Part shown: piece after piece, positions 1 through 64,000 of the stretch
Layout: the number at the start of each line of letters is the position of its first letter
Numbering within the stretch: position 1 is the first letter of the stretch
From: Nemertoderma westbladi
Lineage: Eukaryota > Animalia > Xenacoelomorpha
Reading direction: 5' to 3'
DNA: 64,000 bases
Assembly: GCA_032718475.1 (NCBI GenBank)
Contig: JAUCBJ010000448.1
Span: 1 to 64,000, forward strand
Translations under genes and position numbers: made by a program
The notes under the pieces: model-generated
The model's input: the letters and a program-made list of their open reading frames with translations, nothing else
The model's database searches: none
What the model was told of the DNA's origin: nothing

Positions 1-3
1 TGT

Positions 4-3000
4 AGGGTCTCACCACCGGGTAGGTTGTACTGTTCCGGAGGAACTATAACAAGAAGACCAGACCCCGTGATACATGCGTAGCACATGATCTAGTCTAATC
101 CCGAACTGGGATTTTAGAGATAGCCTTTTTGAGAGCTAAGAAGCTTATCTGGAGAAATAGGCCAAAACCACCAATAAGATGTTCCTATACCCCCCCCTGG
201 AATTCACTGACTTGAGCAATGAACTATATTTGGGTCGATTCCGACATTCGGTTCTCCGTGTAGGGCCAATTTGAGGCCAAAAAATGGCCAATTCCGAAAT
301 TTGCAAAAATCTCAAGAACCGCTAAAGCTACAGACTCGGGACCGGCGCCAAAATGTAGGCAGCATATGGGTTTATATTGACAACCGTTTTTTTAAAGCGT
401 TCCGATCATGATCTTGGCCGCGATCAGTAAAGATCGTGTTTGATCGAAATTCGGACACTCAAGAATTGCTCCAATCGAAAAACTTAACATTACAAAAAGA
501 TTCAGTGACCCCACATTAGTTATGATTCCCGTTAAAAGATTTTCAAAAAAGTGAATTCTTCCTGATCAAAACACAAGATCCGGATCGGGCGAAGATCGGA
601 CGTCATAAAATCGTAACTATGCATTTTGGGTATAAACAATTACTGTAGGAAACGTTCAGAACACCGCCCTGATTCGATTAAAAAAAAAATTGGCTCGTGA
701 ATCCCAACGGTTCTCCGGCTAGGGCCAATTGAAGAAAAAGACGCTCGTCCCCTAGCAACAGCCGTTGCTATGGAGCTACAGTCCAGAACCGCTAACGCTA
801 CGGACTCGGGACCGGCGCCAATCGATAGGCAGCATATGGGTTTACCTTCACAGAGCTTCTTTTTTGGAGCGATGCCCGATCATGATCTTGGCCGCGATCA
901 GTAAAGATCAGTTTTGATCAGCAATCGGACACTCAAGGCTTGCTCCAATCGAAAAACTTAACATTACAAAAAGATTCGCGACCTCATCGATTTAGGCGGG
1001 GGTCGCCGTTAAAGTTTGGAAACAAAGAAATGAATTCTTCCTGATCAAAACGCAAGATCATGATCGTGCAAAGATCGGACTTTATAAAATCGTAACTATA
1101 CATTTTGGATATAAAACAATCAATGTAAAAAACGTTTAGAACGCCGCCCTGAGTTGATTAAAAAAAAAATTGGCACGATCGGCCAACCGGTTCTCGAGAT
1201 ATGCTTCCTGATCGTAAAAGATCGTGTTTTTTTGGTTTTTTGAGCTACAATCTCGAAAACTTTTCAACGAGACCCCCAATTTTTTTTTTTTTAATCGACT
1301 AGCATTTAGTAAGGGGCAACTTTTGTATCATTTTGAAATTTTCTAAAAGCGAATCTGATCAGCCGCGATCAGCAAAGATCGTGTTTTTCGGTGTTTTTTC
1401 GAAGATCAAGTCCTGTGAGTTCACCGTATCGAAAAACTTAACATCACAAAAAGATTCCTCACCCTCGAATTATGGGGGGTAGCCAAAATTTGGGCATAAA
1501 AAAGTTCAAGTCTAGTGGGTCAAAACTCAAGATCATGATCGCGAAAAGATCAGTACTTTTAAAATCGAATCTAAGCATTTTTCTAATAAACATTCATTGT
1601 AGGAAATGTTTACTGGACCATTCTGAGTTGATTAAAAAGAAAATTGGCTCGATCGGCCTAACCGGTTCTCGAGATCGGCTTCCTGATCGTAAAAGATCGT
1701 GTTTTTTTAGTTTTTTCGAATTTTCTCAAAAACTTTGTTTGAGACCCCCGATTTTTTTTTTACGAATCGACTTCTATGGTGAAGGAGCAACTTTTGTATA
1801 TTTCGAAATTTTCAAAAAGCGATTTGATCAGGCCGTGATCAGAAAAGATCGTGTTTTCGGTTTTATTTCAAAGAGCAAGTCCTGTGAGTTCACCGTATGG
1901 AAAAACTTAACATCACAAAAAGATTCCTCACCCTCGAATTAGGGGGGGTAGCCAAAATTTGGGCATAAAAAAGTTCAATTCTAGAGGGTCAAAAGATCAT
2001 GATCGCGAAAAGATCAGTTTTTTCGAAATTACTTCTAAGCATTTTGGGGCAAAACTTTCAAACTAAAAAACATTCACTGGAGTGTTCTAAGTAGATTAAA
2101 AAAAATTTCGACTCAATAGGCCTACCGGTACCGGAGATATGGTCGTTCAAAGTCTGCTTCCGGTAATTCGAAAATATTTCGAAAACCCTTGATCTAATTT
2201 TTTCCTTGAAAATATGTGAATGTACAGTTAGTGGACCCGCATCTAACGATATATCACAATCCATATTTCGGATGACAGGTACCGGTAAAATCAGACTTTA
2301 CCAAAAAAAATTCAAATTTTTTCTACTCATGTCTGACTTTCTCTAAAACTATAACAGGTATGAAAATACTTTCGCCCCAAGAAATGTTCGCCTATCCAAT
2401 GCGCTTCTAACGATGTATTCAGATTTGTACAACGGTCAATAGTTTTCGAGATATTAACAACTTAGGCCCTGATCACCATGATCGCAAAAGATCAGTTTTT
2501 TAGAATTTTGATGTAAGCCTTTTCAGACAAAATTTTCAAACTAAAAAACATTCACTGGAGTGTTCTAAGTAGATTAAAAAAAAATTCGACTCAATAGGCC
2601 TACCGGTACCGGAGATATGGTCGTTCAAAATCTGCTTCCGGTAATTCGAAAATATTTCGAAAATCCTTGATCGAATTTTTTCCTTGAAAATATGTGAATG
2701 TACAGTTAGTGGACCTGCATTTAACGATATATCACAATCCATATTTTAGATGACAGGTACCGGTCAAATCAGACTTTACCAAAAAAAATTCAAATTTTTG
2801 CAACTCATGTCTGACTATCTTGAAAACTATAATAGGTATGAAAACACTTTCGCCCCAAGAAATGTTCGCCTATCCAATGTGCTTCTAACGCTGTGCTCGG
2901 ATTTTGCATAGTATCAAAATCGACTACTTAACCCCCCCGCGGAGGGAACGGAGTGACCGGAGCGCAAAGGGTGGTGGGAGGGGTAGGTGGCAAACACTAT

Positions 3001-4226
3001 TTATAGGGTGGAGGGAGGGGCTAGTATATTACTTTAGGGTATTTGATTTTCTTTCAATATAGTTTAGGTACCTCAGTCTTATTTATAATATATTATACAT
3101 TATTCCAAATTATATGAAGTTCTAATAAACTAGATTTTCCACCTGTAGGATGAATATATAATGTTGGGCTCATAATATATTTGAAAAATAGATTTTAGTA
3201 TTTATATTGTATAACAGATTGCTAATTGATATTATTATGGTACTATACTAAAGACGCTTTGATTATCTGATCAAAAGTCAAGTACTGGCATATTTTTTAA
3301 TTCTTTAATCATTCTCTAAACTCTAAATCTCTAAAATCACACTAAATCTAAGATAAGAAACATTTGCTTTACTTATTGTTTGCTTGTGAGGTTATATTAA
3401 TATATAATGCCGCAGTATAATATCAAATGGGGTGAAACCCGTATTAACTGGAAAATGTTTCATTATTATTACAATTGGCACATTCAAGTATGTAGTATTA
3501 ATAAAGGATAAGTTAATAAAGGATAAATTAATTATTAATCCATATCTTCAACTTTGTCTATATGGTTGCATTAATAATAATGTTACTTTATCAATTGGGT
3601 CTAAAACAATCTTCTTTACTCCAAAATTATGATAACTTATAAGAGGACGGGGTTCGTGATTACTTGTCATTATTATATACTGCCCCCACTCGGCTTTAGA
3701 GAGTGCACCCTCGGTTGCTTACCGGACATATGGGCCACACATCGACAGGGTAATGTCCGTGGGACTACTCAACCAACCCGGCCATGCGAACGCAACCATT
3801 CCAAAGCACCTACATGAACTGGTTTCAGAATTGTTAAGATTTTTGAGAGAGTAGAGCCCAACATGCACTTTAAAGTAAAGAGTAATAAAAAATAATTATA
3901 TCTACCCATTAGAATATATATATATAACAATCATACATAACATATCACTAAATATGAATCCTTCTATCATTGTCATAACTTCTTGTAGTTTGTTTACGCA
4001 GTTGCATTACTAATATGTTATTATATTGATCGGGGCCAAACCCGCATGACACGACACAAGCCGATCCCAAATCGTCCCATAAATTCTACTCGCCAGCGCC
4101 ACCCGCCACTCGCCACCACTATTATTTGATTAATAGAGGGTTATGATATTTTTTTTGTTTTGGGGTTGGGAATAAAGTGCCCCCACTCGGCTATAGAGAG
4201 TACCTCTTGGTGGTTTCACTGGATGT
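4..4226 (+). mobile_element. Unit 1, non-coding family A (4223 bp)
   Basis: Window starts inside a junction (tgt|agggtctc, same as 29855 onward) and the unit ends at CTGGATGT 4219-4226. Six about 470-bp modules plus the A tail. Confidence 0.8.
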
Positions 4227-7200
4227 ATGGGCCAGTTCCGTTTACGTAAGGTCCGTAGGACTACGAACATCACTCCGGCCCAAAGCCCGACGACGGCCAC
4301 CTCGCTGAACTGGTTCGGAAAATTAATGATAGCCTTTTTTAGAGAATAGAAGGTTATCTCGAGAACTAGGCCAAAACCACCAATAAAATGTTCCTAGACC
4401 CCCCCCCAAAATTTAATTATAAGACTTTTAGTGAAACTCGGCGACTCGTGAATCTCGACGGTTCTCCGGCTAGAGCCAATTTGAGTCAAAAAGTCAGCTT
4501 CCCTAGCAACCTCGTTGCTATGGAGCTACAGCCAAAACGGCTAATGCTACGGAGTTGGGACCGGTGCCAATCGATAGGCAGCATATGGGTTTACCTTCAC
4601 AACTTCGAGTTTGAAGTTGCCCGATCATGATCTTGACCATGATCTTCAAAGATCAGTTTTGATCTGCAATCGGACACTCACCGCTTGCTCCAATCGAAAA
4701 ACTTAACATTACAAAAAGATTCAGAGACCCCACATTAGTCATGATTCCCGTTAAAAGATTTAAAAAAAAGTGAATTCTTCCCGGTCAAAACGCAAGATCA
4801 TGATCGCGCAAAGATCGGACTTTGTAAAATCGTAACTAAGCATTTTGGATATAAACAATTACTGTAGGAAACGTTCAGAACACCGCCCTAAGTCGATTAA
4901 AAAAAAAATTGGTTCGATCGGACAACCGGTTCTCGAGATCTGATACCTGATCATTAAAGATCGTATTTTTCGGTTTTTTCAAATTTTCTCGAAAACTTTG
5001 TTTGAGACCCCCGATTTTTTTTTTACGAATCGACTTCTATGGTGAAGGGGCACCTTTTGTGCATTTCGAAATTTCCAAAAAGCGATTTGATCAGGCCGTG
5101 ATCAGAAAAGATCGTGTTTTCGGTTTTATTTCGAAGACCAAGTCCTGTGAGTTCACCGTATGGAAAAACTTAACATCACAAAAAGATTCCTCACCCTCGA
5201 ATTAGGGGGGGTAGCCAAAATTTGGGCATAAAAAAGTTCAAGTCTAGTGGGTCAAAACTCAAGATCATGATCGCGAAAAGATCAGTACTTTTAAAATCGA
5301 ATCTAAGCATTTTTCTAATAAACATTCATTGTAGGAAATGTTTACTGGACCATTCTGAGTTGATTAAAAAAAAAATTGGCTCGATCGGACCAATGGTTCT
5401 CGAGATCTGATACCTGATCATAAGAGATCGTGTTTTTTTAGTTTTTTTGAATTTTCTCGAAAACTTTGTTTGAGACCCCCGATTTTTTTTTTACAAATCG
5501 ACTCCTATGGTGAAGGGGCAACGTTTGTGCATTTCGAAATTTTCAAAAAGCGATTTGATCAGGCCGTGATCAGAAAAGATCGTGTTTTCGGTTTTATTTC
5601 GAAGACCAAGTCCTGTGAGTTCACCGTATGGAAAAACTTAACATTACAAAAAGATTCCTCACCCTCGAATTATGGGGGGTAGCCAAAATTTGGGCATAAA
5701 AAAGTTCAAGTCTAGCGGGTCAAAACTCAAGATCATGATCGCGAAAAGATCAGTTCTTTTAAAATTGAATCTAAGCATTTTTCTAATAAACATTCATTGT
5801 AGGAAATGTTTACTGGACCATTCTGAGTTGATTAAAAAAAAATTGGCTCGATCGGACAACCGGTTCTCGAGATCTGATACCTGATCATTAAAGATCGTGT
5901 TTTTCGGTTTTTTGAAATTTTCTCGAAAACTTTGTTTGAGACCCCCAATTTTTTTTTTACTAAACGACTTCTATTAGGAAGGGGCAACTTTTGTGCATTT
6001 CGAAATTTTCAAAAAGCGATTTGATCAGGCCGTGATCAGGAAAGATCATGTTTTCGATTTTATTTCGAAGACCAAGTCCCGTGAGTTCACCGTATGGAAA
6101 AACTTAACATCACAAAAAGATTCCTTACCCTCGAATTAGGGGGGGTAGCCAAAATTTGGGCATAAAAAAGTTCAATTCTAGAGGGTCAAAAGATCATGAT
6201 CGCAAAAGATCAGTTTTTAAGAAATCTGATGTATGCATTTTCAGACAAAAATTTCTAAATAAGAAACATTCACTGGACCGTTCTGAGTAAGTTAAAACAA
6301 AATTCAACTCAATAGGCCTACTGGTACCGGAGATATGGTCGTCCAAAGTCAGCTTCCGGTAATTCGATAATATTTCGAGAACCGTTGATCGAATTTTTTT
6401 TTTGAAAAAATGTGATTGTACAGTTAGGGGACCCGCATCCAACGATATATCACAACTCATATTTCGGATGACAGGTACCGGTAAAATCAGACTTTACCAA
6501 AAAAAATTCAAATTTTTTCTACTCATGTCTGACTTTCTCTAAAACTATAATAGGTATGAAAATACTTTCACTGTAAGAAATGTTCGCCTATCCAATGCGC
6601 TTCTAACCATGCATTCAGATTTTTACCACGGTGAATAGTTTTCGAGATATAAACAACTTAAGCCCTGATCACCATGATCGCAAAAGATCACTTTTTTAGA
6701 ATTTTGATGTAAGCCTTTTCAGACAAAATTTTCAAACTAAGAAACATTCAATGGACCGTTCTAAGTAAGTTTTAAAAAAATTCAACTCAATAGGCCTACC
6801 GGTACCAGAGATATGGTCGTCCAAAGTCTGATTCTTGTAATTTCATGATAACTCGAGGACCATTTATCGAAAATTTTTTTTGAAAACATGTGAATGTACA
6901 GTTTGGTGGCCCGCATCCAGCGATATATCACAATCCATATTTCGCATGGCAGGTACCGGTAAAATCAGACTTTACCAAAAAAAATTCAAATTTTTGTTAC
7001 TCATGTCTGACTATCTTGAAAACTATAATAGGTATGAAAATACTTTCACCCAAAGAAATGTTCGCCTATCCAATGTGCTTCTAACGCTGTGCTCGGATTT
7101 TGCATAGTATCAAAATCGACTACTTAACCCCCCCGCGGAGGGAACGGAGTGACCGGAGCGCCACGGGTGGTGGGCGGGGTAGGTGGCAAACACTATTTAT

Positions 7201-8422
7201 AGGGTGGAGGGAGGGGCTAGTATATTATTTTCGAGTATTTGATTTCTTTTCAATATAGTTTAGGTACCTCGGTCTTATTTATAATATATTATACATTATA
7301 CCAAATTATATGAAGTTCTAATAAACTAGATTCTCCACCTGTAGGATAAATATACAATGTTGGGCTCATAATATATTTGAAAAATGGATTTTAGTATTTA
7401 TATTATATAACAGATTGCTAATTGATATTATTATGGTACTATACTAAAGACGCTTTGATTATCTGATCAAAAGGCAAGTACTGGCATATTTTTTAATTCT
7501 CTAATCAATCACTAAACTCTAAATCTCTAAAATCACTCTAAATCTAAGATAAGAAACATTTGCTTTACTTCTTGTTTGCTTGTGAGGTTATATTAATATA
7601 TAATGCCGCAGTATAATATCAAATGGGGTGAAACCCGTATTAACTGGAAAATGTTTCATTATTATTACAATTGGCACATTGAAGTATGTAGTATTAATAA
7701 AGGATAAGTTAATAAAGGATAAATTAATTATTAATCCATATCTTGAACTTTGTCTATATGGTTGCATTAATAATAATTTTACTTTATCAATTGGGTTTAA
7801 AACAATCTTCTTTACTCCAAAATTATGATAACTTATAAGAGGACGGGGTTCGTGATTACTTGTTATTATTATAAACTGCCCCCCACTCGGCTTTAGAGAG
7901 TGCACCCTCGGTTGCTTACCGGACATATGGGCCACACATCGACAGGGTAATGTCCGTATGACTACTCAACCAACCCGGCCATACGGACGCAGCCATTCCA
8001 ACGCACCTACATGAACTGGTTTCAGAATTGTTAAGATTTTTGAGAGAGTAGAGCCCAACATGCACTTTAAAGTAAAGAGTAATAAAAAATAATTACATCT
8101 ACCCATTAGAATATATATATATATATATATAACAATCATACGTAACATATCACTAAATATGAACCCTTCAATCATTGTCATAACTTCTTGTAGTTTGTTT
8201 ACACAGTTGCATTACTAATATGTTACTATATCAATCGGGGCCAAACCCGTATGACGCGACACAATCCGAACCCAATTCGTTCCATAAATTCTACTCGCCA
8301 GCTCCCACCCACCACTATTATTTGATTGATAGAGGGTTATGATATTTTTTTTGCTTTGGGGTTGGGAATTAAGTGCCCCCACTCGGCTATAGAGAGTGCC
8401 TCTCGGTACGTTCACTGGATGT
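4227..8422 (+). mobile_element. Unit 2, non-coding family A (4196 bp)
   Basis: Junction to junction (ends 8415-8422). Homologous to units 1 and 12 and to the ends of unit 13. Confidence 0.8.
8371..8422 (+). other. Conserved unit junction (exemplar): CACTC/GAGTG hairpin followed by invariant CTGGATGT; putative Rep origin/terminator
   Basis: 13 full copies, with CTGGATGT ending at 4226, 8422, 10532, 12646, 16850, 19072, 21193, 23413, 25632, 27745, 29857, 34075 and 63225. Function is inferred. Confidence 0.8.
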
Positions 8423-10532
8423 TCTGGCCCCAAAACGAAGTGTTCGCGTATGCGCAGCAATATTAAATCTAAAACGGCCACAAAGACGAAGACAAAGTCG
8501 AAGACGGCCACCCTAGTCTTGCGTTAGCTCTTTAGGGATACCAGAATCACGGAGGAGAAGCTTATCTCAGAAAGTAAGCAAGAACCACCAATAAGATGTT
8601 CCTAGACCCCCCCCCAGAATCGGCTCAATAGTCCATAGAGGTTTTTTTGGAGCGATCCGGCCGACGGGTAACCCGCTGGGTCCATTTTGACCCGTTTTTT
8701 CCCATTTTTCGGAGAAGAAATTTTTAAAGCATTTGTTTGAGAGAACCGCGTAACCCCTGAACATGGGACCAACGCAGTTCGAAAGAGCAAGGTCCAAACC
8801 CCCCAAAAAGTCTTTTTGGTGTAATATCGATCAACTTTGCGTCCGTGATCAGTAAAAGATCATAAAGATCGTGTTTGATCGCGAATCGGACAGAGAAGGA
8901 GTTTCCACATCTGAAAATGGTCTAGCCCATCGTCTTTCTCGTCCCCGAATTGTGGGGGGTAGCCGGAAGCCCAATTTCTCAAATTTAATTCTTGACCAAG
9001 ATCACGATCGTCGAAAAGATCATAAATGATCTTTAACTTTAAAGCTATTTGGGACTTAATTTTCTTAATAGAAATTGTTGACAGGACTGTTGCGAGTTGA
9101 TTAAAAGAAATTTCAACTCGATAGGCCTACCCGTACCGGAGATACAAAGATCCAAAGTCTGATGTATGATCTTTAAAGATCACCCTATGATGACTCGGTC
9201 GGTAATTTTTTTTAAATTAAATGAATGTTTAGAAAGGTCGCGAGCATCCAACCATGCATCGCGTTCCACGTTGCGGATGACTGCTGCTCCGGAAATCAGA
9301 CTTTACCAAAAAAAAACCGGATCTTCAAAGATCATTGCCGAATAAGTCGAGAACCGTAAGGGCTATGAAAAAACTTTCAACGGCAATAATATTCGCCTCT
9401 CCAATGCGCTTCCAACCATGTATTTGGATTTTTCGTAGCGTCGATATTTTTCGAGATATAGCCTTCGAAACGTGGGTATGCCAAAACGGGTCTTTGTACC
9501 GGTACCTAGGCCTAGCTGTACACGATTGGAGCGATTTAAACATTGGAATCTTAATGATTCGCGACTGGCTATACGCCAGTTTTTAAATTTCTGAAAAAGA
9601 CCCAGCGGTTGCAGAGATATGAAAATTTTTCAAATGTACCTCGCGTCGATCGAAAAGTGCCATCGTCGAAAACGAAAAATTTTAAATCTCAATTTTCACC
9701 ATGAAGAATTGATTTTGATGAAAAAGTCTCCAGACGAAAAGTGCTCAGAATCATTAATTACCTACAAGGGGATGAAATTCGAGTCACTAAAATGAATTTT
9801 AAAATTTTTTTTGGTTAAAATTTAGTTTGGACCAGGAACGAGGCTTAATCTAATATACAGTCAGTTGGCGGAGGGAGCGGAGCGACCGGAGCCCCCAAAA
9901 CTAAAACCCCTGGGTTACTGCCCCCCCTTGGGGGGGATGGGGGGGGATTATATAAATGGGTTGGTAGGTTCGGTGGTTCTAGAATTTTACAATTTACGTT
10001 AAAAAAAAAGTAAAAAATTTTTCGCTCGCTTCGCTCGCGCCCCCCCCCCCCCCCCCCCCGCGCGGATTTTACCTACAATATTATTAACTACATGTTCATT
10101 GAAGCTTACGATAATTTCCTACAGCGTCATATCAATATTTTCCATCCTTACAACTCATAATACTTTTCGCAAAAAATAAATTGTTAATAATATTCAAGTC
10201 ACATATACAACTACTTGGGTGAGTGTTTGTTACATAGTTGCATATATTTACAACATTAAACCTTTGACAAAAAGTATACAATGTGATGGGCTTACAGAAT
10301 TTCACAAGAAGAAATCTATTTTCGCCAGCAATGGCGGGGGTGTCATAATATGCCCCCCAACCTGTCCTCCTCCTCAGCCTGCTGTTGGACTCCCTGTTTT
10401 ACTAACACTTTACTATACGACCCTCTGGTAGTATACCCCCTGGTGGGGTCCTACTGCACGACGCCATACGTCTGTGACTTATAAGTGCCCCACTCGGCTA
10501 TAAAGAGTGCCCCTAGTTTTTTCCCTGGATGT
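8423..10532 (+). mobile_element. Unit 3, non-coding family B (2110 bp)
   Basis: Ends at junction 10525-10532. Near-identical to units 4, 7, 10 and 11. Confidence 0.8.
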
Positions 10533-38642: not shown

Positions 38643-38647
38643 ATTAT

Positions 38648-44114: not shown

Positions 44115-44137
44115 GTAAGTTAACCGATATACCGATA

Positions 44138-44295: not shown

Positions 44296-44304
44296 GCATA
44301 CATC

Positions 44305-51093: not shown

Positions 51094-51153
51094 GAATTTA
51101 CTTATGTATGTACATTGTACATATAGGTTATTATTGATAAATATTGTATATAG

Positions 51154-51468
51154 GAGAGAGTTGAGGATTCCAATAGGGCTGAAGCTTCAACTCAACCCAT
51201 GGATACTTCTGATGGAGGAGCCCCTAACCCTCCCATCTTCTCTCCTGCTGCTGGTGACGAGACATCCACCTCTGCCCCGTCCTCAGATCCTCTAACCTCG
51301 GAATGTGGGGAAGAATCCTTTTCTGCCCACAACTTTCTCTCCACGTTTACATTGCAACCTGGAGAGCAAACCCCTCGCTTTACCCCCAAGCGTCCAATGC
51401 CTTACGTGATTCCATCATGTGTCATTGGCGGACCAAGGGGCGTAATCCGAGGGGCACGTCCTGTAACA
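51154..51468 (+). CDS. Predicted exon 2 of the RepHel-like gene (105 aa, Ser/Pro-rich linker)
   Basis: tag acceptor at 51153, open frame including ORF 51199, donor gtgagt at 51469. Phase 0 at both ends, compatible with exons 1 and 3. Confidence 0.7.
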
Positions 51469-51757
51469 GTGAGTTTAATGTATTTCTATATATATAATAA
51501 ATATACAGTTGTCATATAGTTCCTATGTGTATCAGTGTATTAAATATAATCTAGACCAACTATATAGTTGTTTTTTAGATGTCATTGTGTTGTACTTGTA
51601 TCTATACGTTGTATAGGTTGTCTACGGTTTTAATATTTATGTACCATTCATATGGAATGTTGATTAATTAGTTTATAGTTTTAAATTAAAGTCAGATTTG
51701 TACATAGATTTAAATAATTGTACTTCATTTTATATGGAATTTTTTTATTTTTTTTAG

Positions 51758-54700: not shown

Positions 54701-57700
54701 ACATTACTCCGTAGAGAAAACTTTAGGGAGGATAATGGATTATGTGTTAAGTCGCACTCTGGTACTAGTGTGAGTAAGAATATCCGCTGGCGGTGCCCTT
54801 ATGGGTTTCCTGAAAATCAGTGTGAGGTTGGTTTGTGTCTTAGTCACTGGAAGGATGTGATTGTTCAACCTGAGATTGAGATACTTATTGGTCCTTGCAA
54901 TGACCAGAGTAATGTTCAAATTCAACACTCGAGAGGTCTACAAGTAGGTGGCGATCAGCGCCGTCCTGATGATGACTCAGATGATGAGGAAGTGGAGGAT
55001 CCTCTAGATAGGGCAAGCAGAATTTTTGGTGGTGATTTTCAAACTGATGATTCTGCTATTCCTATGGAAGACTATGTGGTGGGGATAAACGATGGTGACT
55101 ATGATGACGATGAGTATCCATTAGTAGGATTGGCAACTGGTGCCACTATTCCTATTTATGATGTTGGACGGGTCTCTTCTCATTGTCTTTTGAACAATCA
55201 GAATGGCCTCCAGATACTTAAGCGTACACGTGGTTATGGGGGTAAAGGTAGCGCCTATGTAAATAAGGTGCTGTATCATATTGCCTCCCGTTCACCTGGC
55301 ATCCATTTGCCCCTTATGTACATTGAAGGATTACTGTTTCCAAGAAACTTCTGGTACATGAAGGCTAATGGAAGCGTTGTTGGTGCTATTCCATCATTCT
55401 TGTATGGCCTTCCATTCAATGCTCCTAATTATGGTATTGCATCACTACGGGATCATATGCATATCAGGACATTTGATGAACGGCTGTTTTCGTCAAAGGA
55501 TCCAGCCTATCTTCATTACTGGTTTGATGTGTACATGAACTCAGTATTGAACCATACTTCTGCTCAGCTTGTTCTCCGTAAGGGATTTGAACAAGTCTGT
55601 GAGGGGGAGGAAAGGCTTCAATCTGGTGCTTCAGATACCATTTTACGTTTCGACGAAATGGAATCACGGCGTCGTGTGAGGGAGCTTTGTGCACTTTTGC
55701 GGTATGGTTACTGGAATTATTTTTTCACAGCCACCTGTAATAATGCGCATACTCCAGGTGTTTCACCAGTTTATGATGCAGTTCGGAGGCTCTATGAGCA
55801 TCTGGATGGCAGAAAGCTGGCGTTAGCTATGGAGAAGTATACTGCTTTATTCACACGCTGTTGGAATCGTTTCGCAGATCACCTTCACCATTGGATTGAA
55901 CGAGGTATTGATAAACCCTTTGGTGATGTGAAGTATATATGGACACGAATGGAGGCTCAAGATCAGGGATCCCCTGTAGCAAATATGCTACATATCCATG
56001 GTGGAATAACCCTCCACCCGGAGTCTATAGAGGAGACACGCGATAGGATTTGCTGTCGAACCACTGACTTGTTATCTCCTTTCTTTGGGACAGATCGTCC
56101 TCAATTGGTTGAGCAAGGAATCATTGAGGATGACGAATGGTCTCAGCTGTTCAGCCTAAAGCACCTGCAAACGCATAACTGCGACCGAGCTGGCAGTCGG
56201 TGCCATAAACGTATTGACGAGGCTGGAAATACGTTTTGCCGAATGCCTCGTCATGTTGCTAGTATGGATAATGGCTTTAAACCTAAGACTGACATGTACA
56301 CCGATGATGCCCTCAATGATCTGGAATCTATAGACCTTCTTCAAAGAAATGATGATGGGTCTCTTAGATTAGATGATCAGGGTAATCGATTGGCACATAT
56401 AAATCTTATTGGAGGTCGCCATACTTATTCTGCTAGTGGTTTTGAGTTTGCGGTACCAACGATACCTAGGTATTGGGTGGCTTTGAGATCATCCACCAAT
56501 GTACAGGCTTGTGATACAAAGTTTTGCACTTCGTATTGTGCCAAGTACTTGGGGGGTCCTGAAGAACGGCGTGCAGTTAAAATTGACGGACAAAAGAATC
56601 TGACCTCAGTGAAGGTCACTCATACTGAACAGGAAGGAATAAAGATATCTGGGGTTAATTATCTCAAGAAGCAGGCAGATATGAAGGATAGCAATAAGAG
56701 TGGCATCAAAGCTCGGGAGATGGGATATCCAGAGATTCTTCATAATCTTCTGGGCTTCCCATACATCAGATCAAATGTGGACTTTGTCCATGTTTCCACT
56801 CTGAGTCCTGAGTACCGGCACGGCATTGTGAAACAACAAACAAGAGATGTTCATTTAGGAGTTCTTGAAGCTGTTCAAACACGATTAATGATGCCAGGTT
56901 TACCAGAATGGCGTAACTTCACAAATAATCAAATTCTTACTGTCAATGAGATGGGTAAGAGTGATTATATTGCTGATGGTTTAACTTCTTTCAGCATAAG
57001 AGCTCCTGAGCTTCGAATCTTTGACAAACTTGACGTATTCTACGAATGCTTTGCTCTTTCAGCAAGGGTCAAGAAAAGTCAATGTGATTTGGAGCTGAAG
57101 AAGTGCCATTGGATAGATGGTAATAACCGTCTATGGAAGCTACGACCTTCTGGCATTCCGATAGCTGTAGAATTTCTAACAAGAAAGGCTACAACTGGTA
57201 ATGTTATCGCTAGGCAGTTATTGGATGAGGTATTCTTACCTATATCCAGAGGAGAACTTCATAAGATCTTTGTGAGTTCGCTTGAGAAACATAAGAAACC
57301 TGCCATAGTTGTGTTCTCAAGTGTTAGCCCATTGCAAATGGGACGTTTCTTGTTTCACCTTGCCTATTCCCTTGGAAGTTTTGAGACTGAACTAGATTTA
57401 TTAGATGTTCAGGATATTCGTACAACTTTCAAGAAGGCAAGTCTAATATCAGATGATGTTATTGTGCCGGAATGTGAAGTCACTGACTTATTGAAATCCT
57501 ATGTCATGAGAGACTTGCATTATCAATCTATTGGTAATGCACAATTCCAACGTTATCTACATCTTGCAATCACTGGTATTCGGCAATTCTTTGCTGGTGA
57601 TGGCTTGTTATATGAGGCTATTCCTCTATTTTATGAGGATAGTATTCGTGTGCAAGCTACGAAAGAAGTAGAAAGGTTAGAGGAGGTCAGCCATGTCAAT

Positions 57701-59806
57701 CTTATGGAGGCTTTATACGGGCAGGAGGGATTGATATTGCCAGATATGGCTGATTTAGCACGTGCTACACGGGCCCATCCTCTAGAGTGGCAACCTTTAC
57801 TGGATGTGGCTAGTGGCCAAACAGGGGAATCTGTTTCTGAGCAAAAGAACATGCTACAAGTATTGGTGAATGCTGTTGATGCTTATTGTCATCCATCATC
57901 AACATTTGTTAAATCCCCTTGGTTGGTTGGCGCACCTGGTGTTGGCAAGACTCATGTTATGCTAATGGGACTGGCATATAGCCTCTCGCGTGGTTTAAAT
58001 GTGCAGCTAACTGCTATTACCAGCGAGAGAGCTAGGTTGCTTGGTGGTGTACATCTACATCTACTGATGCCATTCAGTGTTGGAAGAGGTTCACGCTCAT
58101 TAACTAGCACTTGTTTAGCCCAGGATTGCTTATTAGCACTGGCAAAGAATCCATCCAAACTTGCATATCTCCAAAGATTGAATGTTATCTTCTTTGAGGA
58201 ATGTGGAATGCTCTCATGTGAGTATCTTGCAGCTATTGACTTGGTATTACGCCGAATCTGTAACACACAGAGACCCTTCGGTGGCAAACTCTTCATTGGG
58301 TGTGGAGATCATCTACAATTAGAACCTGTGGATGGTAGGGTTGTATGGCTCAGCACACATTTTTTAACAACATTCACTGTTTGTGTGGCGAGACATTATG
58401 TTCGTAGTGCTAATGACGAGGAATTGCAACACGTCATTAATATTATGCGAAGCACCAACCCAAGTCCAAACCTTATTGATGAAGTGATTGCTATATTGAA
58501 GCGGCGGTGTAACTTTGTTGATAGTTGGGATGAAGTCCCTGATGATGTCTTGAAGGTTGTTGGCACTAGAGCTGCAGAGCAAGAGGTACTACAGAAATAC
58601 CTAAACCTTCATAGGAATGAGCCTGGGACAGTTGTAATAAGCGGCCATGATGAGGTTAGTTCTACTGCTTCTAATACTAGCTCATGGAAGCCTACAAACA
58701 CTCCCAGCATTATCAGTTCAATCACGAGATCTTGTCGGGAACCCATGGAGTTGGTTTTATTTCTAAACCAGATCCTTAGGTTCACATACAATCAGCTTTC
58801 TGGACAACCTCAATTTTCCAATGGTCAATTGTCTGTTGTTAAAGCAGTACCAGCTGATTGCGATGATTTCTTGGAATTGGCTGTTGTTCCAAAAGGTTGT
58901 CGTCAAATTGAAGAGGTTGAGAGTACCTGGCCTGTGGCTAAAGTTAAGCAACGGCCTTGTGCTGCCACTTCTACTGGTTTTGGTAGCAATCTTCTTGGCA
59001 GACGGGTGCAGTTTCCGGTGCGCTACTTTGGGGCAGGAACTGTCCATGGTATACAAGGACAAGATGCCCCAAGCTTAGCAACACAGATCTCCTCTGATGC
59101 CAAGAGTAAGTATAGGCTATGGCTAAAAACCCAGATAACAACCTTAATATCGAGGGTACGGTATCTCAACACATTTACATTTGTTGGCAAGATGGATGAG
59201 GCCTTTAATTGTATCCGCATCTTGCTTAGCATGAAGTCGCCCAATCAAGATTATATAGACCAGTTATTAAGACGTCTTAATATTCTTATTGGGCCCCCTC
59301 AGGTACCTCTCATGTTTGAATATCACCCCTTCCGACCCTTCTTTAGGGAAATCCCTGGTGCACAAATTGGATTTGTGTATATGCTTATCAGCATTCGGTT
59401 GCCTAATGTGAATTACACTGGTCAAACTGAGAACCTGAAAATGAGACTTCAGAGTCACCAAAATAAAACAGGTTCGGAGTTTACAAAGAATCCTGTTTTA
59501 CATCCTTGGTCTCTGTATGCTTTCATATACGGGTTTCCTGGTGACGCCAAGAGTAAACTCAATACAGAAAACCGTAAGGGATTTGAGACTAGGTGGCATC
59601 ATATGGCAGAGACTGGACCTGCAGGTGGGGATATGACCAAAGGACGAGACCAGGTGTATGCTATGGGTGTTGAGATTGTGCGTCAATATAATGCTGAGTT
59701 TTATGTTGATGCAGATGGAAATGCAAAGCGTTTTGAACTAACAATGGTTAAATGCCAAGAGTTAATTCAAGATAATTTGCAAGCCGAGATCCCAATGTCT
59801 CAATAG
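51758..59806 (+). CDS. Exon 3 of RepHel-like polyprotein: OTU + Cys-rich + HUH Rep + Pif1-like helicase + GIY-YIG (contains the 2621-aa ORF 51941-59806)
   Basis: OTU VRGDGNC...HYY (about 52012-52380). CVNC and CKEC pairs (about 52800, 52918). Rep motif I YFFTATCN (55718), II HIH (55991), III YCAKY (56534). Walker A GAPGVGKT (57929), Walker B FFEECG (about 58190), PFGGK...GDHLQLEPV, QFPV...TVHGIQG, LISRV. C-terminal FVY...YTG...RLQSH...PW...GF...FE. Acceptor ttttttag at 51757 is open in frame to the ATG at 51941 (183 nt). Confidence 0.93.
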   Translation, partial: PTGFNLQGSIRTPWIRPVVSGPRFTGYDTARSSAVPATGGAPQPTASSETPRCSSSERVSSMAIQTNAAAWFRVEAEKRNMELVWVRGDGNCMFNAFRISSQGITDSPLLMRKKVRDYLREHSQEFSDKYAPGPYELPFAEFVAQLINQSHDVVFGNSIVLEALGRIYSRLFVVLTTEFGNHMEQVGVPGMPNVLIGHDYVGAHYYAFRPLPLCGVTRVEPPSSSASAIPLPHPQLSTTTASTSPHVEQQQPPPPQPSTSQPQAGEFGECDDRMDWSAFEEDEETLRYDSIRIDHLNLPDIDLSEESDEDMVEEVDIVVEDNDGEVAMEVDGDYQHDSVVILENEEVCVNCRRIKTPEHPLELRMSRKAVNREYGSLRHANEMDYVLCKECSIYLGGKGSHGPWASGWPSFIYSGLVNRVAGLGNPTNLLDLLPEELRDSWRFVIDEFDLRPTKTVLKDFTKDLREYHEVMEEIDLGKLTSLMNNGCFPSVVCGMGCVQYMEACRPIPFNHFLASRFPIKQVFHAKPDQVRSFRSDWPYTFKELDWEAMGGTIVTSKGLGILVCKKHKSTNKLVFHLPNNPVSPDDPIIYPDMFAMATLTPHIVRGPRDGVYSNSFHTVKAEGNSYGLSSCYIELDPVHQYFPEEALRDGKLYHAESLTLECRPDVNEFMRQGRHRHLDPGYIEHVTGYYKPPEQHFIQEALEGATYMDVYDCYRLHERILNKGTEENERDRFSFKDICLDEMPIMQPCNAIGRRSWCIHNETGFSTGLRLQMLSFSVMHCRVMHSILQALEVKSDAQKALLKYLKFGVYAAYCTAQQRRMYAFHVLERLEEDIDLGLHRQTVDSQVALMLEELIPGCIEVNSIDDIINDDIYVLSKPHNTGRGEPFPLQLRGYYLHAALTVSFDKLSGIFRWSDDHSFQHFLHEGNKLVPPMVDDPEGAIKKAQLYIYVKKGCYNLTEIQRDLFIANFADQSKVKCSQHKTLLRRENFREDNGLCVKSHSGTSVSKNIRWRCPYGFPENQCEVGLCLSHWKDVIVQPEIEILIGPCNDQSNVQIQHSRGLQVGGDQRRPDDDSDDEEVEDPLDRASRIFGGDFQTDDSAIPMEDYVVGINDGDYDDDEYPLVGLATGATIPIYDVGRVSSHCLLNNQNGLQILKRTRGYGGKGSAYVNKVLYHIASRSPGIHLPLMYIEGLLFPRNFWYMKANGSVVGAIPSFLYGLPFNAPNYGIASLRDHMHIRTFDERLFSSKDPAYLHYWFDVYMNSVLNHTSAQLVLRKGFEQVCEGEERLQSGASDTILRFDEMESRRRVRELCALLRYGYWNYFFTATCNNAHTPGVSPVYDAVRRLYEHLDGRKLALAMEKYTALFTRCWNRFADHLHHWIERGIDKPFGDVKYIWTRMEAQDQGSPVANMLHIHGGITLHPESIEETRDRICCRTTDLLSPFFGTDRPQLVEQGIIEDDEWSQLFSLKHLQTHNCDRAGSRCHKRIDEAGNTFCRMPRHVASMDNGFKPKTDMYTDDALNDLESIDLLQRNDDGSLRLDDQGNRLAHINLIGGRHTYSASGFEFAVPTIPRYWVALRSSTNVQACDTKFCTSYCAKYLGGPEERRAVKIDGQKNLTSVKVTHTEQEGIKISGVNYLKKQADMKDSNKSGIKAREMGYPEILHNLLGFPYIRSNVDFVHVSTLSPEYRHGIVKQQTRDVHLGVLEAVQTRLMMPGLPEWRNFTNNQILTVNEMGKSDYIADGLTSFSIRAPELRIFDKLDVFYECFALSARVKKSQCDLELKKCHWIDGNNRLWKLRPSGIPIAVEFLTRKATTGNVIARQLLDEVFLPISRGELHKIFVSSLEKHKKPAIVVFSSVSPLQMGRFLFHLAYSLGSFETELDLLDVQDIRTTFKKASLISDDVIVPECEVTDLLKSYVMRDLHYQSIGNAQFQRYLHLAITGIRQFFAGDGLLYEAIPLFYEDSIRVQATKEVERLEEVSHVNLMEALYGQEGLILPDMADLARATRAHPLEWQPLLDVASGQTGESVSEQKNMLQVLVNAVDAYCHPSSTFVKSPWLVGAPGVGKTHVMLMGLAYSLSRGLNVQLTAITSERARLLGGVHLHLLMPFSVGRGSRSLTSTCLAQDCLLALAKNPSKLAYLQRLNVIFFEECGMLSCEYLAAIDLVLRRICNTQRPFGGKLFIGCGDHLQLEPVDGRVVWLSTHFLTTFTVCVARHYVRSANDEELQHVINIMRSTNPSPNLIDEVIAILKRRCNFVDSWDEVPDDVLKVVGTRAAEQEVLQKYLNLHRNEPGTVVISGHDEVSSTASNTSSWKPTNTPSIISSITRSCREPMELVLFLNQILRFTYNQLSGQPQFSNGQLSVVKAVPADCDDFLELAVVPKGCRQIEEVESTWPVAKVKQRPCAATSTGFGSNLLGRRVQFPVRYFGAGTVHGIQGQDAPSLATQISSDAKSKYRLWLKTQITTLISRVRYLNTFTFVGKMDEAFNCIRILLSMKSPNQDYIDQLLRRLNILIGPPQVPLMFEYHPFRPFFREIPGAQIGFVYMLISIRLPNVNYTGQTENLKMRLQSHQNKTGSEFTKNPVLHPWSLYAFIYGFPGDAKSKLNTENRKGFETRWHHMAETGPAGGDMTKGRDQVYAMGVEIVRQYNAEFYVDADGNAKRFELTMVKCQELIQDNLQAEIPMSQ

Positions 59807-59984
59807 AGTACTGTGTCTTGTTTCTTCTTCGTCTTCTAATGTCCGTGTCCTGTGTACCTATGCTTATGCAGCTATGCCAAACTTGCAACTTTCCAAACTT
59901 ACCTTCCCATCTTGTTCAGGCTTAAAATTAAGAATTCTGCCTTATAAATGCAGGCTTTATCAAGGTTATTATATTTTTATATAC

Positions 59985-60545
59985 TTTTTCTTTTGTATTT
60001 TGTCTTTTTACTTTTATCTTTTTCTTTGACTTTCGTCTTTTCACTTTTGTCTTTTAACTTCCTTATAAATACTGGCTTTATCAAGGTTATTTATATTTTT
60101 ATATTTTTTTGTATTTTGTCTTTTTACTTTTATCTTTTTCTTTGACTTTCGTCTTTTGACTTTTGTCTTTTCACTTTTGTCTTTTAACTTTAGTCTTTTG
60201 ACTTTTGTCTTTTGTTGTTTGACTTTTGTCTTATAACTTTGGTCATTTGTCTTTTGACTTTTGTTTTTTGACTTTTGTGATTTGACTTTTGTCTTTTGAC
60301 TTCAGTCATTTTACTTTTGTTTTTTTATTTTTGTCTTTTGACTTCAGTCATTTTACTTTTGTCGTTTTACTTTTGTCTTGTTATTTTTGTCTTTTGACTT
60401 GTTATTTTTCTTTTGTCTTTTTACTTTTTACTTTTGTCTTTTTTGTTTTTGATTATTGTATTATATTGTATTATTGTATTTTTACTTTTGTTTTTTTACT
60501 TTTTCTTATATATTTTTACATTTTTAGTTTTTATTTTTGTTTTTT
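59985..60545. repeat. Degenerate TTTTGAC/TTTTGTC heptamer tract
   Basis: Direct reading of the sequence. Confidence 0.85.
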
Positions 60546-61157
60546 CTTATGCCTTGATAATTAAAATAGTATTTTTCAATTCTCCAATGGTGGGTCGCTT
60601 GAGGAGAGTTGTTGTTCTATGTTTATTGTTTATGCCTGCATAATTAAGGCAGGAAAGAATTAAAATCTCATGATAAGAATACTGGTATAATAAGATCTAC
60701 TTTCTTTGAGAATTCGTAAGAACAATTACTCTAGAGGTGAGCATTTTAGTTGGCCCGGGTGTTGTTCATTACATTTTCTCATTGTTAAGAATTTAGGAAA
60801 GAATTAAAATCTCATGATAAGAATACTGGTATAATAAGATCTTACAATAAGAATGTGTTTCTGTCAATATGTCTGCACCATCATCTCTCTTACCATGCTA
60901 ACTCTCTCTCTAATCCAGGGTGGTCAGGAACCAAACCCGTCTTTTTAAGGCGGGTGGCTGGAATTTGGTCAATTCTAGCCAAACCATGTTTCTCCTTGAT
61001 GACACAGTGTTCTTGCCGTATTATCAATTTTGTGTTTTAAAGACATTCTATTATCTTTTTAACATAATTGTAAATATGGTTAACCGAATATTGACAAATA
61101 TTTTTGTCAATACCCATGGCGTTCATATTTTTACCTAACAGACATTTGGTTGATATA

Positions 61158-61402
61158 CTTTTGTCTTTTGACTTTTGTCTTTTGACTTTTTTCTTTTGAC
61201 TCTTGTTATTTCACTTTTGCCTTTTGACTTTTGTCTTTTGACTTTAGTCTTTTGACTTTTGACTTTTGTCGTTTGACTTTTGTCTTATGACTTTTGTCAT
61301 TTGTCGTTTGACTTTTGTCTTTTGACTTTTGTCCATTGACATTTGTGATTTGACTTTTGTCTTTTGATTTTTGTCTTTTGACTTTTGTCTTTTGACTTTT
61401 GT
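61158..61402. repeat. TTTTGAC/TTTTGTC heptamer tract
   Basis: Direct reading of the sequence. Confidence 0.9.
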
Positions 61403-62094
61403 TAAATATCTTTACACCATAATTTGTTGGTATGTGTAATTTAATGGACACATGGCCTACTTGGAAAGGACACTGAGGAGAATACAATAAGTAGGAAATG
61501 CACTATGCTTTGTGATACTTACTATTTTACTATCATATCGTCAATCTCTGATAGAAGGTGGTAGTAGAAATGTAAATTAATATTGCAAGACATAAGAGTC
61601 CAAAGTCTCTGTAAAGCATGATGGCTACTTCTTCTTCATAATCATATCATTATTGTGATTATTATAATTATATATAGATATATGTTGTTTTGAAGTTATC
61701 GAAGATGGTAAGTTACTAAATTTACTAGTAATGGTAAGTTTGTTATATAATTATAGTATGTATGTATGTGATTAATTATGATTATTGAATTATTGTTAGA
61801 AGAGAAACTTTTTATTAACTTTTTGATTAATTTATCTCTATTATATCTTTTATTTAATTTTTATTTATAGACATTTCTTCATAATTAGTCAATTTATAGT
61901 TTTAAACATGTGGATTATTTAAATGATTCTGGAAATAGTTGTCATCTATCAACTCTTTGTTTACATATTTTATTCTGGAGAATGCAATTTCTAGGTAAGT
62001 TGTTAATGGGGGTTGTTATAAAGTAATGTGGAAGAGTGGAAGGGTTTAATATGGAAGATTAACGAGCCTACAAAATTCTCCCATTCTTATAAAG

Positions 62095-62232
62095 TAATGA
62101 GGGTGGTGGGCGGGGTTGGTGGACAATAAATATTATAAAGTTATTAGGGTGGTGGGCGGGGTTGGAGGACAACAAATATTATAATTTAATGAGGGTGGTG
62201 GGTGGGGTTGGAGGACAATAAATATTGTAAAG
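62095..62232 (+). repeat. Three G-rich about 45-bp repeats
   Basis: GAGGGTGGTGGGCGGGGTTGGAGGACAATAAATATT. A related single copy lies in family A at about 2968, 7165 and 32814. Confidence 0.8.
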
Positions 62233-63225
62233 TAATGGAAAGGCATTCCAGATGTTTTATGATTATTATCTTACTCATTATCATTTACTTCATTACCATT
62301 CTATATTATATACCTATACTCTAAATCTCTAAAATCACTGTAAATCTAAGATTAGATAAAATCACTGTAAATCTAAGATTAGAAGCATTTGCTTTACTTC
62401 TTGTTTACTTGCAAGGTTATTTTAATATATAATGCCTCAGTATAATATCAAATGGGGTGAAACCCGGATTAACTGGAAAATGTTTCATTATTATTACAGT
62501 AGTGTTTAAGTAAGTAGTATTAATAAAGGATAAGTTAATTATTAATACATATCTTCAACTTTGTTTGTATGGTTGTATTAATAATAATGTTACTTTATAA
62601 ATTGGGTCTAATACCATCTTCTTTACTCCAAAATTATGATAACTTATAAGAGGATGGGGTTCGTGATTACTTGTTATTATTATAAAGTTCGGCCACTCGT
62701 CCCACTCGGCTTTAAAGAGTCCTGCTTACCATACATATGGGCCACACATCGACAGGGTAATGTCCGTAGGACCACTCAACCAACCCGGCCATGCAAACGC
62801 AGCCATTCCAATGCACCTACATGAACTGGTTTCAGAATTGTTAAGATTTTTGAGAGAGTAGAGCCCAACATGCACTTTAAATTAAAGAGTAATACAAAAT
62901 AATTATATCTACCCATTAGAATATATAGATAACAATCATACGTAACATAAATCACTAAATATTAATCCTTCAATCATTGTCATAACTTCTTGTAGTTTTT
63001 TTTACGCAGTTGAATTACTATTATGTTACTATATCGATCGGGGCCAAACCCGCATCACGCGATACAAGCCGAACCCAATTCGTGCCATAAATTCTACTCG
63101 TCAGCTCCCACCCACAGCTATTATTTGATTGATAGAGGGTTATGATATTTTTTTTGCTTTGGGGTTGGGAATTAAGTGCCCCCACTCGGCTATAGAGAGT
63201 GCCTCTCGGTACGTTCACTGGATGT

Positions 63226-64000
63226 ATGGGCCGTTCACCGACAGGTATAATGTCCGTAGGACTACTTACATCACTCTGGCCGCGATCCCGTCGACGGCGA
63301 CCTAGCTGAACTGGCTTCGGAAAATTAGAGATAGCCTTTTTGAGAGAATAGAAGGTTTTCTCGAGAACTAGGCAAAAACCACCAATAAAATGTTCCTAGA
63401 CCCCCCCCTAAAATTTAATTACAAGACTTTTAGTGAAACTCGGCGACTCGTGAATCTCGACGGTTCTCCGGCTAGGGCCAATTTGAGGCGAAAAAACTGG
63501 TTCCTTGGCAACTGCCGTTGCTATGCAAAAATCTCAAGAACCGCTAACGCTACGGACTCGGGACCGACGCCAAACTGTAGGCAGCATATGGGTTTACCTT
63601 CACAATTTAGTTTTTGGAGCGAACCGATCATGATCTTGGCCGCGATCAGCAAAGATCAGTTTTGATCAGCAATCGGACACTCAAGGCTTGCTCCAATCGA
63701 AAAACTTAACATTACAAAAAGATTCAGCGACCCCACATTAGTTATGATTCCCGTTAAAAAAATTTAAAAAAAGTGAATTCTTCCTGGTCAAAACGCAAGA
63801 TCCGGATCGCGCAAAGATCGGACTTTGTAAAATCGTAACTAAGCATTTTGGATATAAACAATTACTGTAAGAAACGTTCAGAACACCGCCCTGAGTCAAT
63901 TAAAAAAAAAATTGGCTCGATCGGACAACCGGTTCTCGAGATATGCTTCCTGATCGAAAAAGATCGTGTTTTTTGGTTTTTTCCAATTTTCTCGAAAACT
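63226..64000 (+). mobile_element. Unit 14, family A-type start (truncated by window end)
   Basis: Follows junction 63218-63225. The start of its body matches unit 2. Confidence 0.75.

Follow-up and report, generated by a model that had tools for sequence, protein, structure and literature searches.

Background

Helitron-like elements that meet end to end have been described before. In the bat Myotis lucifugus, passages of two reports describe perfect head-to-tail Helitron junctions and tandem arrays, and in maize B73 they describe two unlike, directly abutting Helitrons, interpreted as consecutive insertions (PMC2267711, PMC4067079). The transposase of Helraiser makes and precisely cleaves junctions between the right terminal sequence (RTS) and the left terminal sequence (LTS), and circles with precise junctions act as transposition donors, according to the relevant passages of PMC5876387. 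Apparent site-specific integration with an absolute orientation bias is described for the telomere-targeted Helitrons of Paramecium in part of PMC13085455, and part of PMC11417382 mentions a family of the Helitron2/Helentron (HLE2) branch, HelenSM92 of Sphagnum, that carries a GIY-YIG domain. We analyse here a stretch of 64,000 nucleotides from Nemertoderma westbladi (contig JAUCBJ010000448.1, positions 1 to 64,000 of the forward strand), called the window in what follows. It is made up of units of several families of Helitron-like elements, one of them apparently autonomous, that follow each other head to tail and switch family at one invariant 8-letter word.

A chain of units joined at one 8-mer

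The window is an unbroken chain of 14 units that run in the same direction, 13 of them complete and the last one cut, with no stretch outside units. The 8-mer CTGGATGT has 14 matches in it, all on the forward strand, where 1.37 are expected; none of 100 shuffled sequences reaches 14. The longer motif proposed in the initial annotation, CACTCGGCTAYARAGAGT-N12-20-CTGGATGT, has 13 matches against 0 expected, and the 3' hairpin motif, allowing up to 3 mismatches, has 17, again all on the forward strand. Thirteen of the 14 occurrences of the 8-mer are joints between units, and cutting at these sites gives 14 units in the order A A B B B* C B C C B B A AUTO A, which reproduces the layout of the initial annotation. 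As for target duplications, duplicated letters are found at 0 of the 13 joints, but the units of the window have no host flank at all. The remaining copy of the 8-mer, at 57800-57807, lies in frame within the open reading frame 51758-59806, in the codons for ...LLDVAS...; it does not mark a joint, and a single match by chance is expected.

The chain, read from one assembly and entirely on the forward strand, begins with two non-autonomous units: unit 1 (4..4226) is of type A1, with head AGGGTCTCACCACC... and a tail spacer ...CTCTTGGTGGTTTCA followed by CTGGATGT, and unit 2 (4227..8422) is of type A2, its first 110 and last 60 letters being 100% identical to those of AUTO. Units 3 (8423..10532) and 4 (10533..12646) belong to family B and share the head TCTGGCCCC, and unit 5, or B* (12647..16850), is a long rearranged relative of B. 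Then come unit 6 (C, 16851..19072), unit 7 (B, 19073..21193, head TCTGGCCCC), unit 8 (C, 21194..23413), unit 9 (C, 23414..25632, with the tail spacer variant GCTAGTCGATTTCC), unit 10 (B, 25633..27745, head ATTGGCCC) and unit 11 (B, 27746..29857), whose tail spacer stands between the A and B types. Unit 12 (29858..34075) combines A1-type termini with an AUTO-like interior. Unit 13 is AUTO itself (34076..63225), an autonomous element of 29,150 bp with internal minisatellites and a transposase reading frame, and unit 14 (63226..64000), with a head of type A3, is cut by the end of the window. Units of A type are thus present as initially annotated, but they do not form the single family assumed there: their heads are of three types, A1 in units 1 and 12, A2 in unit 2 and AUTO, and A3 in unit 14. 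The first three letters of the window, TGT, are the end of a preceding 8-mer, so that the window begins nearly at a unit boundary; this may reflect a break of the contig or of the assembly at a joint.

Families switch within about eight letters

Among the 13 joints, 10 distinct pairings of tail type and head type occur: B(TC), B(AT) and C heads each occur after B tails and also after C tails, and A2 tails meet B and A3 heads. That one tail type can precede different heads, as initially annotated, is seen at 8422 and 63225, where A2-type tails meet a B head and an A3 head, and at 19072 and 23413, where C tails meet a B head and a C head. The spacer that precedes the 8-mer agrees with the upstream body at 12 of the 13 joints, and the head that follows it agrees with the downstream body at all 13; the exchange can therefore lie only within about 8 letters. 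At the one discordant joint, that of unit 11, the intermediate A/B tail at 29815-29857 is real. At 12 of 13 joints, family identity changes inside or right after the 8-mer.

Families B and C have an interior of about 1250 bp in common, at 83-85% identity. In spite of this, none of 8 units is a B/C chimera (B* was left out as rearranged): the base of the unit's own family is present at 561 of 566-578 diagnostic columns, and runs of the other family's bases are at most 3 long. Ordinary homologous exchange is thus not the cause of the switches. Divergence tells a similar story. The three C-C pairs differ by 1.4-2.2%, and the ten B-B pairs by 2.4-4.9%. Units C6 and C9 differ at 31 of 2219 sites, while their neighbours B7 and B10 differ at 87 of 2109 (Fisher p=3e-8): the two [C B] blocks are therefore not duplicates of a block, and the C units are younger than the B units that flank them. 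On the same counts we reject, for C/B, a higher-order repeat whose blocks were copied whole; the A1|A2 blocks are unaffected by this comparison. Taken together, the location of the switches, the lack of chimeras and this difference in divergence uphold the initial claim that simple concatemer rolling or unequal crossover is insufficient to explain the array.

Proposed insertion at resident joints

The combinatorial joints, the absence of chimeras in all 8 units and the divergence of C and B units lead us to favour the precise placement of single units at joints. We propose, with even confidence for and against, that the array was built by repeated transposase-mediated insertion of single elements exactly at resident joints between a 3' end and a 5' end. 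The end of the 8-mer, CTGGATGT|, would be the site at which the HUH Rep cuts and rejoins. Since a free circle, once closed, carries at its joint the very sequence of the tail|head joint in the chromosome, the Rep would cut either as readily; it would then ligate the excised unit into the cut joint, yielding tail_a|head_x...tail_x|head_b, free of host letters and of duplication. Decay of the 8-mer would turn two neighbours into one mobile unit by end bypass, as may have happened in the A-type units, and neighbouring units would also swap interior sequence by gene conversion or unequal exchange.

A bolder form of the proposal is that at least four Helitron-like families, served by a RepHel bearing a GIY-YIG domain, use resident 3'|5' joints as their only integration site and live solely in arrays of their own making; we offer it tentatively and think it somewhat more apt to fail than to hold. 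The "safe harbour" of the initial annotation is something we infer: insertion at joints would likely keep new copies out of host genes.

Structure of the unit ends

The conserved 3' end is exemplified by positions 10491..10532 of the forward strand: the hairpin CACTC-N9-GAGTG, with a stem of 5 bp, is followed by 13-16 letters of spacer specific to the family and then by the invariant CTGGATGT. Unit ends at 4226, 8422, 12646, 16850, 19072, 21193, 23413, 25632, 27745, 29857, 34075 and 63225 are built alike. In 12 of 13 units, 21-24 letters separate the hairpin from the end, and its final G is A in units 1 and 12; the stem is otherwise invariant across units, leaving no covariation. Spacers differ by family: ...CCTCTTGGTGGTTTCA in A1, ...CCTCTCGGTACGTTCA in A2, CCCCTAGTTTTTTCC in B and CTAGTGGATTTAC in C.

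Heads start with W/Y-N-TGGSCC in most families; those of A1 read AGGGTCTC, and those of A2 and A3 read ATGGGCC. A 5' hairpin is predicted in the A2-type head at 34077..34131 (forward strand), where TGGGCC pairs with GGCCCA about 45 letters on, around an inner stem GGTCC-GTA-GGAC. More generally, the DNA folds bring letters 2-7 together with a stretch about 45-50 letters further along in A1 heads (GGGTCT/AGACCC), in the heads of A2 and AUTO (TGGGCC/GGCCCA) and in 4 of the 6 B heads (TGGCC/GGCCA); no such stem is predicted for C, A3 and the two other B heads. The difference between the A1 and A2 stems is compensatory.

Bodies of different families are unalignable (50-55% in forced alignments), and the block from -60 to -27 is still 70-91% alike. 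Among the A-type units, identity over the first 110 and last 60 letters is 98-100% within each type, against 61-94% for the interiors. The termini, kept far better than the interiors, are under constraint. With AUTO, the non-coding families A1, A2, B and C share only a 3' signal of about 45 letters and a short structured 5' end.

Head and tail of the same family also show short complementary runs in the same register, between positions +9..+15 of the head and -12..-18 of the tail: ACCACC/GGTGGT, AAAAC/GTTTT and AATCGA/TCGATT. A stem between such a head and tail would set the 8-mer in a loop of about 20 letters, as in other HUH origins, which we take as a hint only.

The tail of B* is itself rearranged, with partial tail modules at 16016-16066, 16670-16749 and 16750-16850. 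Over 16016-16850, the first 3' module stops before the hairpin, and the second breaks off at GGCTATAGA, within the hairpin loop, with the third following directly: the result is a tandem duplication of 72-74 bp, to which slippage or aborted termination could have led.

Fossil joints in the A-type units

Each of the four complete A-type units has an extra hairpin motif about 500 bp before its end, followed by a spacer and a decayed 8-mer; past each decayed 8-mer stands a complete head, ATGGGCCACACA..., with an inner stem GTCC-GTR-GGAC. On the forward strand of unit 1, the hairpin variant, spacer and CCGGACAT occupy 3687..3729, and the head ATGGGCCACACA at 3730 opens a mini element at 3730-4226. 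The corresponding joint of unit 2, at 7884..7926, also has CCGGACAT and precedes a mini element at 7927-8422; that of unit 12, at 33547..33589, has CCGGATGT, one change away, and a mini element at 33590-34075; that of AUTO, at 62703..62736, has a hairpin with 3 changes, a shortened spacer and CCATACAT, before a mini element at 62737-63225. A hairpin, a decayed 8-mer and a complete head inside each A-type unit indicate that each is an old pair of elements. Every complete A-type unit, AUTO included, is thus a long element and a mini element of about 490 bp inherited as one, the working 3' end being supplied by the mini element. We infer that the fusion was an end bypass. In all four complete A-type units, the loss of a unit boundary coincides with changes in the 8-mer.

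Over their first 110 and last 60 letters, units 1 and 12 pair with each other, as do unit 2 and AUTO, at 98-100% identity. The mini body of unit 12 is only 61-64% like the other three. The A-type units also contain an internal tandem repeat of about 469 bp, in 2.3-3.1 copies per unit, at 948-2018, 4783-6214, 30430-31863 and 34635-36064.

AUTO and its transposase

AUTO matches unit 2 over its first 2.4 kb and its last 0.9 kb, at 92.8% and 88% respectively: A2 is therefore a relative of AUTO with an internal deletion. The transposase is encoded by an open frame of 2682 codons on the forward strand (51758..59806, first ATG at 51941), in which four regions, all on that strand, are recognized. An OTU domain at 52016-52309 (residues 87-184) scores 20.7 bits, below the Pfam cut-off of 23.3, and a Rep stretch matching Helitron_like_N at 55670-55999 (residues 1305-1414) scores 17.3 bits, below the cut-off of 28.9; its motifs HIH and SYCAKY are at 55991 and 56531. 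A PIF1 helicase at 57839-58330 (residues 2028-2191, Walker A at 57929) reaches 36.7 bits for a cut-off of 25.9, and a GIY-YIG domain at 59369-59548 (residues 2538-2597) reaches 26.3 bits for a cut-off of 22.6.

In a set of 5.8 billion proteins, only 2 of 4121 candidates proved to be related, at 32% and 26% identity. Both homologues pass the Helitron_like_N cut-off at the aligned stretch, with 39.2 and 32.7 bits, and the motifs HxH, S-Y-x3-Y, Walker A and GIY...YxG are common to the AUTO protein and to both. The Helraiser structure 7lcc matches the AUTO protein weakly (E=4.9e-5), over the helicase part only. Clusters that combine PIF1 and GIY-YIG are listed in Atlas, and a search with the transposase gave no match in viral_contigs. 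An HUH two-tyrosine Rep is thus followed by a PIF1 helicase in one protein, as expected of a Helitron-like element; as for the GIY-YIG domain, our guess is that it nicks the target or the second strand. The OTU-Rep-PIF1-GIY-YIG frame, and the fact that the units have only terminal signals in common, agree with the initial view that these are Helitron-like rolling-circle elements, one autonomous and the others non-coding. The window has 9 frames of at least 150 amino acids: 5 lie within a 12-letter repeat, and the others have no Pfam matches or weak ones. Rfam and tRNA scans of the window found no genes.

The rest of AUTO is rich in repeats. Between the 5' end and the reading frame, a minisatellite forms two arrays, 36688-38039 and 44305-51078, of about 8 kb in total; its unit of 56 bp is composed of sub-repeats of 35 and 21 letters, with higher periods of 91, 147 and 203 and cross-matches at 80-90%. 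At 40757-42173, a 1.4-kb (GCCACACGCCAC)n-like repeat (GC 0.53, GC skew -0.43) accounts for three overlapping frames of about 490 codons and for 2 of the 3 minus-strand frames. On the reverse strand, 38815-40030 holds open frames of 165 and 211 codons. The longer of them, at 39395-40030, has weak GDSL-lipase matches, with Pfam scores of 20.4 and 19.6 bits that are below the cut-offs, and no homologue in the large protein set; it may be a captured, decayed fragment of a host gene, but offers no clue to the host. Directly 3' of the transposase stop, 59937-60545 and 61157-61402 consist of T-rich 14-bp repeats (TTTTGTCTTTTGAC-like), where GC falls to 0.27 and AT skew to -0.35.

The same joints in other samples

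Three other public runs of the same organism, in the form of short contigs (38-744 letters), were compared with the window over 16700-21300 and 10413-10652. B and C sequence is present in them at high summed depth, in the thousands for B and in the hundreds for C, figures that are not convertible to copy number. At the B|B joint, 17 of 19 loose ends are listed; in 6 of these 17, the sequence runs through the 8-mer, or up against it, and continues in a different spacer or head, and none of the 17 is at 10532/10533. The variants include AAGGGTTTTTCCC-CTGGATG, GTACGCTTA-CTGGATGT-A, GTTTCACT-CTGGATGT-ATTGGCCCCAA, a C spacer followed by CTGGATGT-GTGGGCCCCA and, abutting the 8-mer in two runs, ATCCCGGTTTCACT. 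Both the types of joint and additional families thus exist independently of this assembly. Among the records listed from the three runs, none has the 31 letters on both sides of a joint that our bridging rule demands.

Apparent joints of contigs over 16700-21300 were set aside: they fall inside the sequence shared by B and C, and look like cross-matches between repeats. A scan of metagenomes for the hairpin motif gave 3 contigs, none with CTGGATGT after the motif, which we take as chance. Two unrelated metagenome contigs (L002 2344 and L003 4000, reverse strand) have an exact copy of the 20-mer CACTCGGCTATAGAGAGTGC with TAA behind it but no 8-mer, which we likewise put down to chance.

Weighing the explanations

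A number of observations count against insertion at joints. No circle, empty joint or insertion polymorphism came to light, and the insertions are deduced from their end product, the sequence of the array; the order of the units rests on a single assembly; and the window has no host flank on which the usual HLE2 target, T|T or T|C, could be read. The contigs of the other runs drop rare variants, so they cannot show that solo copies are absent, and they are too short for unit order. The pairing of heads with tails is weakly supported, with own-family runs of 4-6 letters against 1-4 across families, and in 5000 trials with shuffled tails the observed run is reached 328 times for A1, 46 for C9, 1543 for C6, 1631-3920 for B and 1701 for A2. 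Moreover, local duplication or gene conversion clearly also shapes the array, which has been remodelled in place: the interiors of A-type units group by neighbourhood (unit 12 and AUTO are 97.9% alike at +120..+700, units 1 and 2 are 97.0% alike before the fossil joint), and no B pair among the 10 is closer than the adjacent pairs B3-B4 (2.42%) and B10-B11 (3.37%). Finally, the hybrid A/B spacer of unit 11 and the three partial tails of B* imply that exchange inside the conserved 3' block does occur.

These likenesses between neighbours are also what one would expect if the array had grown mainly by end bypass, multi-unit rolling-circle copying and unequal exchange, a few heterologous joints having arisen once, where elements came to lie next to each other, and blocks having been amplified and reshuffled in place, with no preference for joints. 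The A1|A2 joint is indeed found twice with similar flanks (4122-6607 and 33970-36439, at 92.8%), the joint of a B tail with C recurs (16749-19083 and 21092-23424, at 97.9%), adjacent A-type units have interior stretches that are 97-98% identical, fossil joints show that bypass fusions occur, and part of PMC4067079 ascribes published tandem Helitron arrays to a bypassed termination signal. We nevertheless consider this account rather unlikely, though it is the most serious rival: each of the 10 tail-head pairings in 64 kb requires a precise join of its own, further pairings are found in other runs, [C6 B7] and [C9 B10] are not block copies, and the B and C units tested show no chimeras over their shared 1250 bp. 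Recombination by homology or microhomology in the terminal block of about 50 letters (hairpin, 8-mer and TGGSCC), with no role for the transposase, could also shuffle the order. This block is the only sequence common to all families, and the spacer of unit 11 and the tail duplication of B* resemble exchange or slippage there; but the spacer, which lies between hairpin and 8-mer, stays with the upstream body at all joints save one, an exchange point of about 8 letters is too short for homologous recombination, and the longer homology of B and C shows no exchange, which makes this improbable.

An assembly artefact, with real units in a wrong order or adjacency, deserves attention in a window that is 100% repeat, that starts 3 letters before a unit and whose joints no listed contig spans with 31 letters on both sides. 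We believe it to be very improbable, as a divergence of 1.4-5% between units is enough for long-read assembly, and contigs of other runs connect B or C spacers, by way of the 8-mer, with heads of B, C and other kinds. Least credible of all is a true integron-like platform, capturing and expressing functional cassettes at one attachment site. The likeness is formal only, consisting in circular units, a hairpin-bearing joint and a single orientation, and the term "integron-like" was an overstatement: we find no tyrosine recombinase and no IntI-type domain in the only long frame, no attI or attC, no promoter, no Rfam or tRNA genes, and units that, apart from AUTO and its transposase frame, are non-coding repeats.

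Comparison with known systems

In classification, AUTO is best described as a Helitron-like element with HLE2-like traits: the 3' hairpin of Helitron-like elements is present, and the 5' hairpin of HLE2 is predicted by DNA folds in A1, A2, AUTO and 4 of 6 B heads. A canonical Helitron (HLE1), which begins with 5'-TC, ends with CTRR-3' and lies between A and T, does not fit, given that all 13 complete units end with GGATGT and only 3 of 14 heads begin with TC. Nor does a Helentron proper, since Pfam finds a GIY-YIG domain (26.3 bits) and no Exo_endo_phos, the apurinic/apyrimidinic (AP) endonuclease. A transposon-derived satellite of the DINE-TR1 type was rejected as well: the units are whole elements with both termini, several families interleave and no higher-order repeat fits. 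With Helitron2 and Helentrons, as far as passages of three reports describe them, AUTO shares an OTU domain upstream of RepHel, an extra nuclease, hairpins at both ends and repeat-rich non-autonomous partners (PMC3627910, PMC4067079, PMC11417382). It differs in that this nuclease is GIY-YIG and not the AP endonuclease that defines Helentrons, and in that the complementarity of heads and tails, a mere candidate for the short asymmetric terminal inverted repeats of HLE2, is on the downstream side of the 3' hairpin, whereas that of HLE2, as described in these passages, lies upstream.

In the bat and maize cases, as in this array, a 3' end meets the next 5' end with no host letter between them. 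Those cases, in the passages that describe them, are pairs or single-family arrays in dispersed families of the TC...CTRR kind, whereas here at least four families interleave over 64 kb, all ends are in joints, and the ends are not of the TC/CTRR kind. The telomere-targeted Helitrons of Paramecium resemble the present elements, in the part of the report concerned, by their orientation bias, by satellites between the left end and the reading frame and by many non-autonomous copies; their targets are telomeric repeats and their transposases form a separate clade, whereas the presumed target here is the elements' own joint (PMC13085455). Helraiser, whose precise RTS-LTS junction is both formed and cleaved, would provide the biochemical basis of the mechanism proposed here; it integrates at AT dinucleotides genome-wide, and the passages of that report that deal with integration mention no preference for resident junctions (PMC5876387).

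Head-to-tail Helitron pairs and arrays, and site-specific Helitrons, are thus already in print, as the cited passages attest. New here are the fossil joints in A-type units, the further joint variants in other runs and the interior exchange between neighbours. A literature search on tandem, head-to-tail and mixed-family arrays of Helitrons or Helentrons, with subscription journals outside its reach, brought up, in the text it covered, no mixed-family array at one invariant motif with fossil joints and an intact autonomous member.

To our knowledge, target choice and termination of Helitron-like elements are known from one reconstructed bat element, and the HLE2 branch is without a biochemical model. 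The array unites an apparently intact autonomous copy with several non-autonomous partners that carry natural variants of the terminal signals, and its fossil joints are "natural mutants", in which changes of the 8-mer coincide with a lost unit boundary. If insertion at joints is true, it would reveal a new means by which a DNA transposon spares its host, would lead directly from transposons to long complex satellites, and would offer a candidate eukaryotic site-specific single-strand integrase system.

Two more distant systems offer themselves for comparison. In integrons, circular units enter one defined site by means of a tyrosine recombinase, and carry genes. The analogy with this array is that of circular units at one site, the recombinase and the genes being found in integrons only. 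In adeno-associated virus, an HUH Rep integrates at a genomic look-alike of its own origin and nick site. There, as here, an HUH Rep would face a chromosomal copy of its own nick site, and the difference is that the virus uses a single host locus. Should the elements' own joint prove to be their only target, this would be the first eukaryotic DNA transposon to target its own junction, and an HUH-driven counterpart of cassette insertion.

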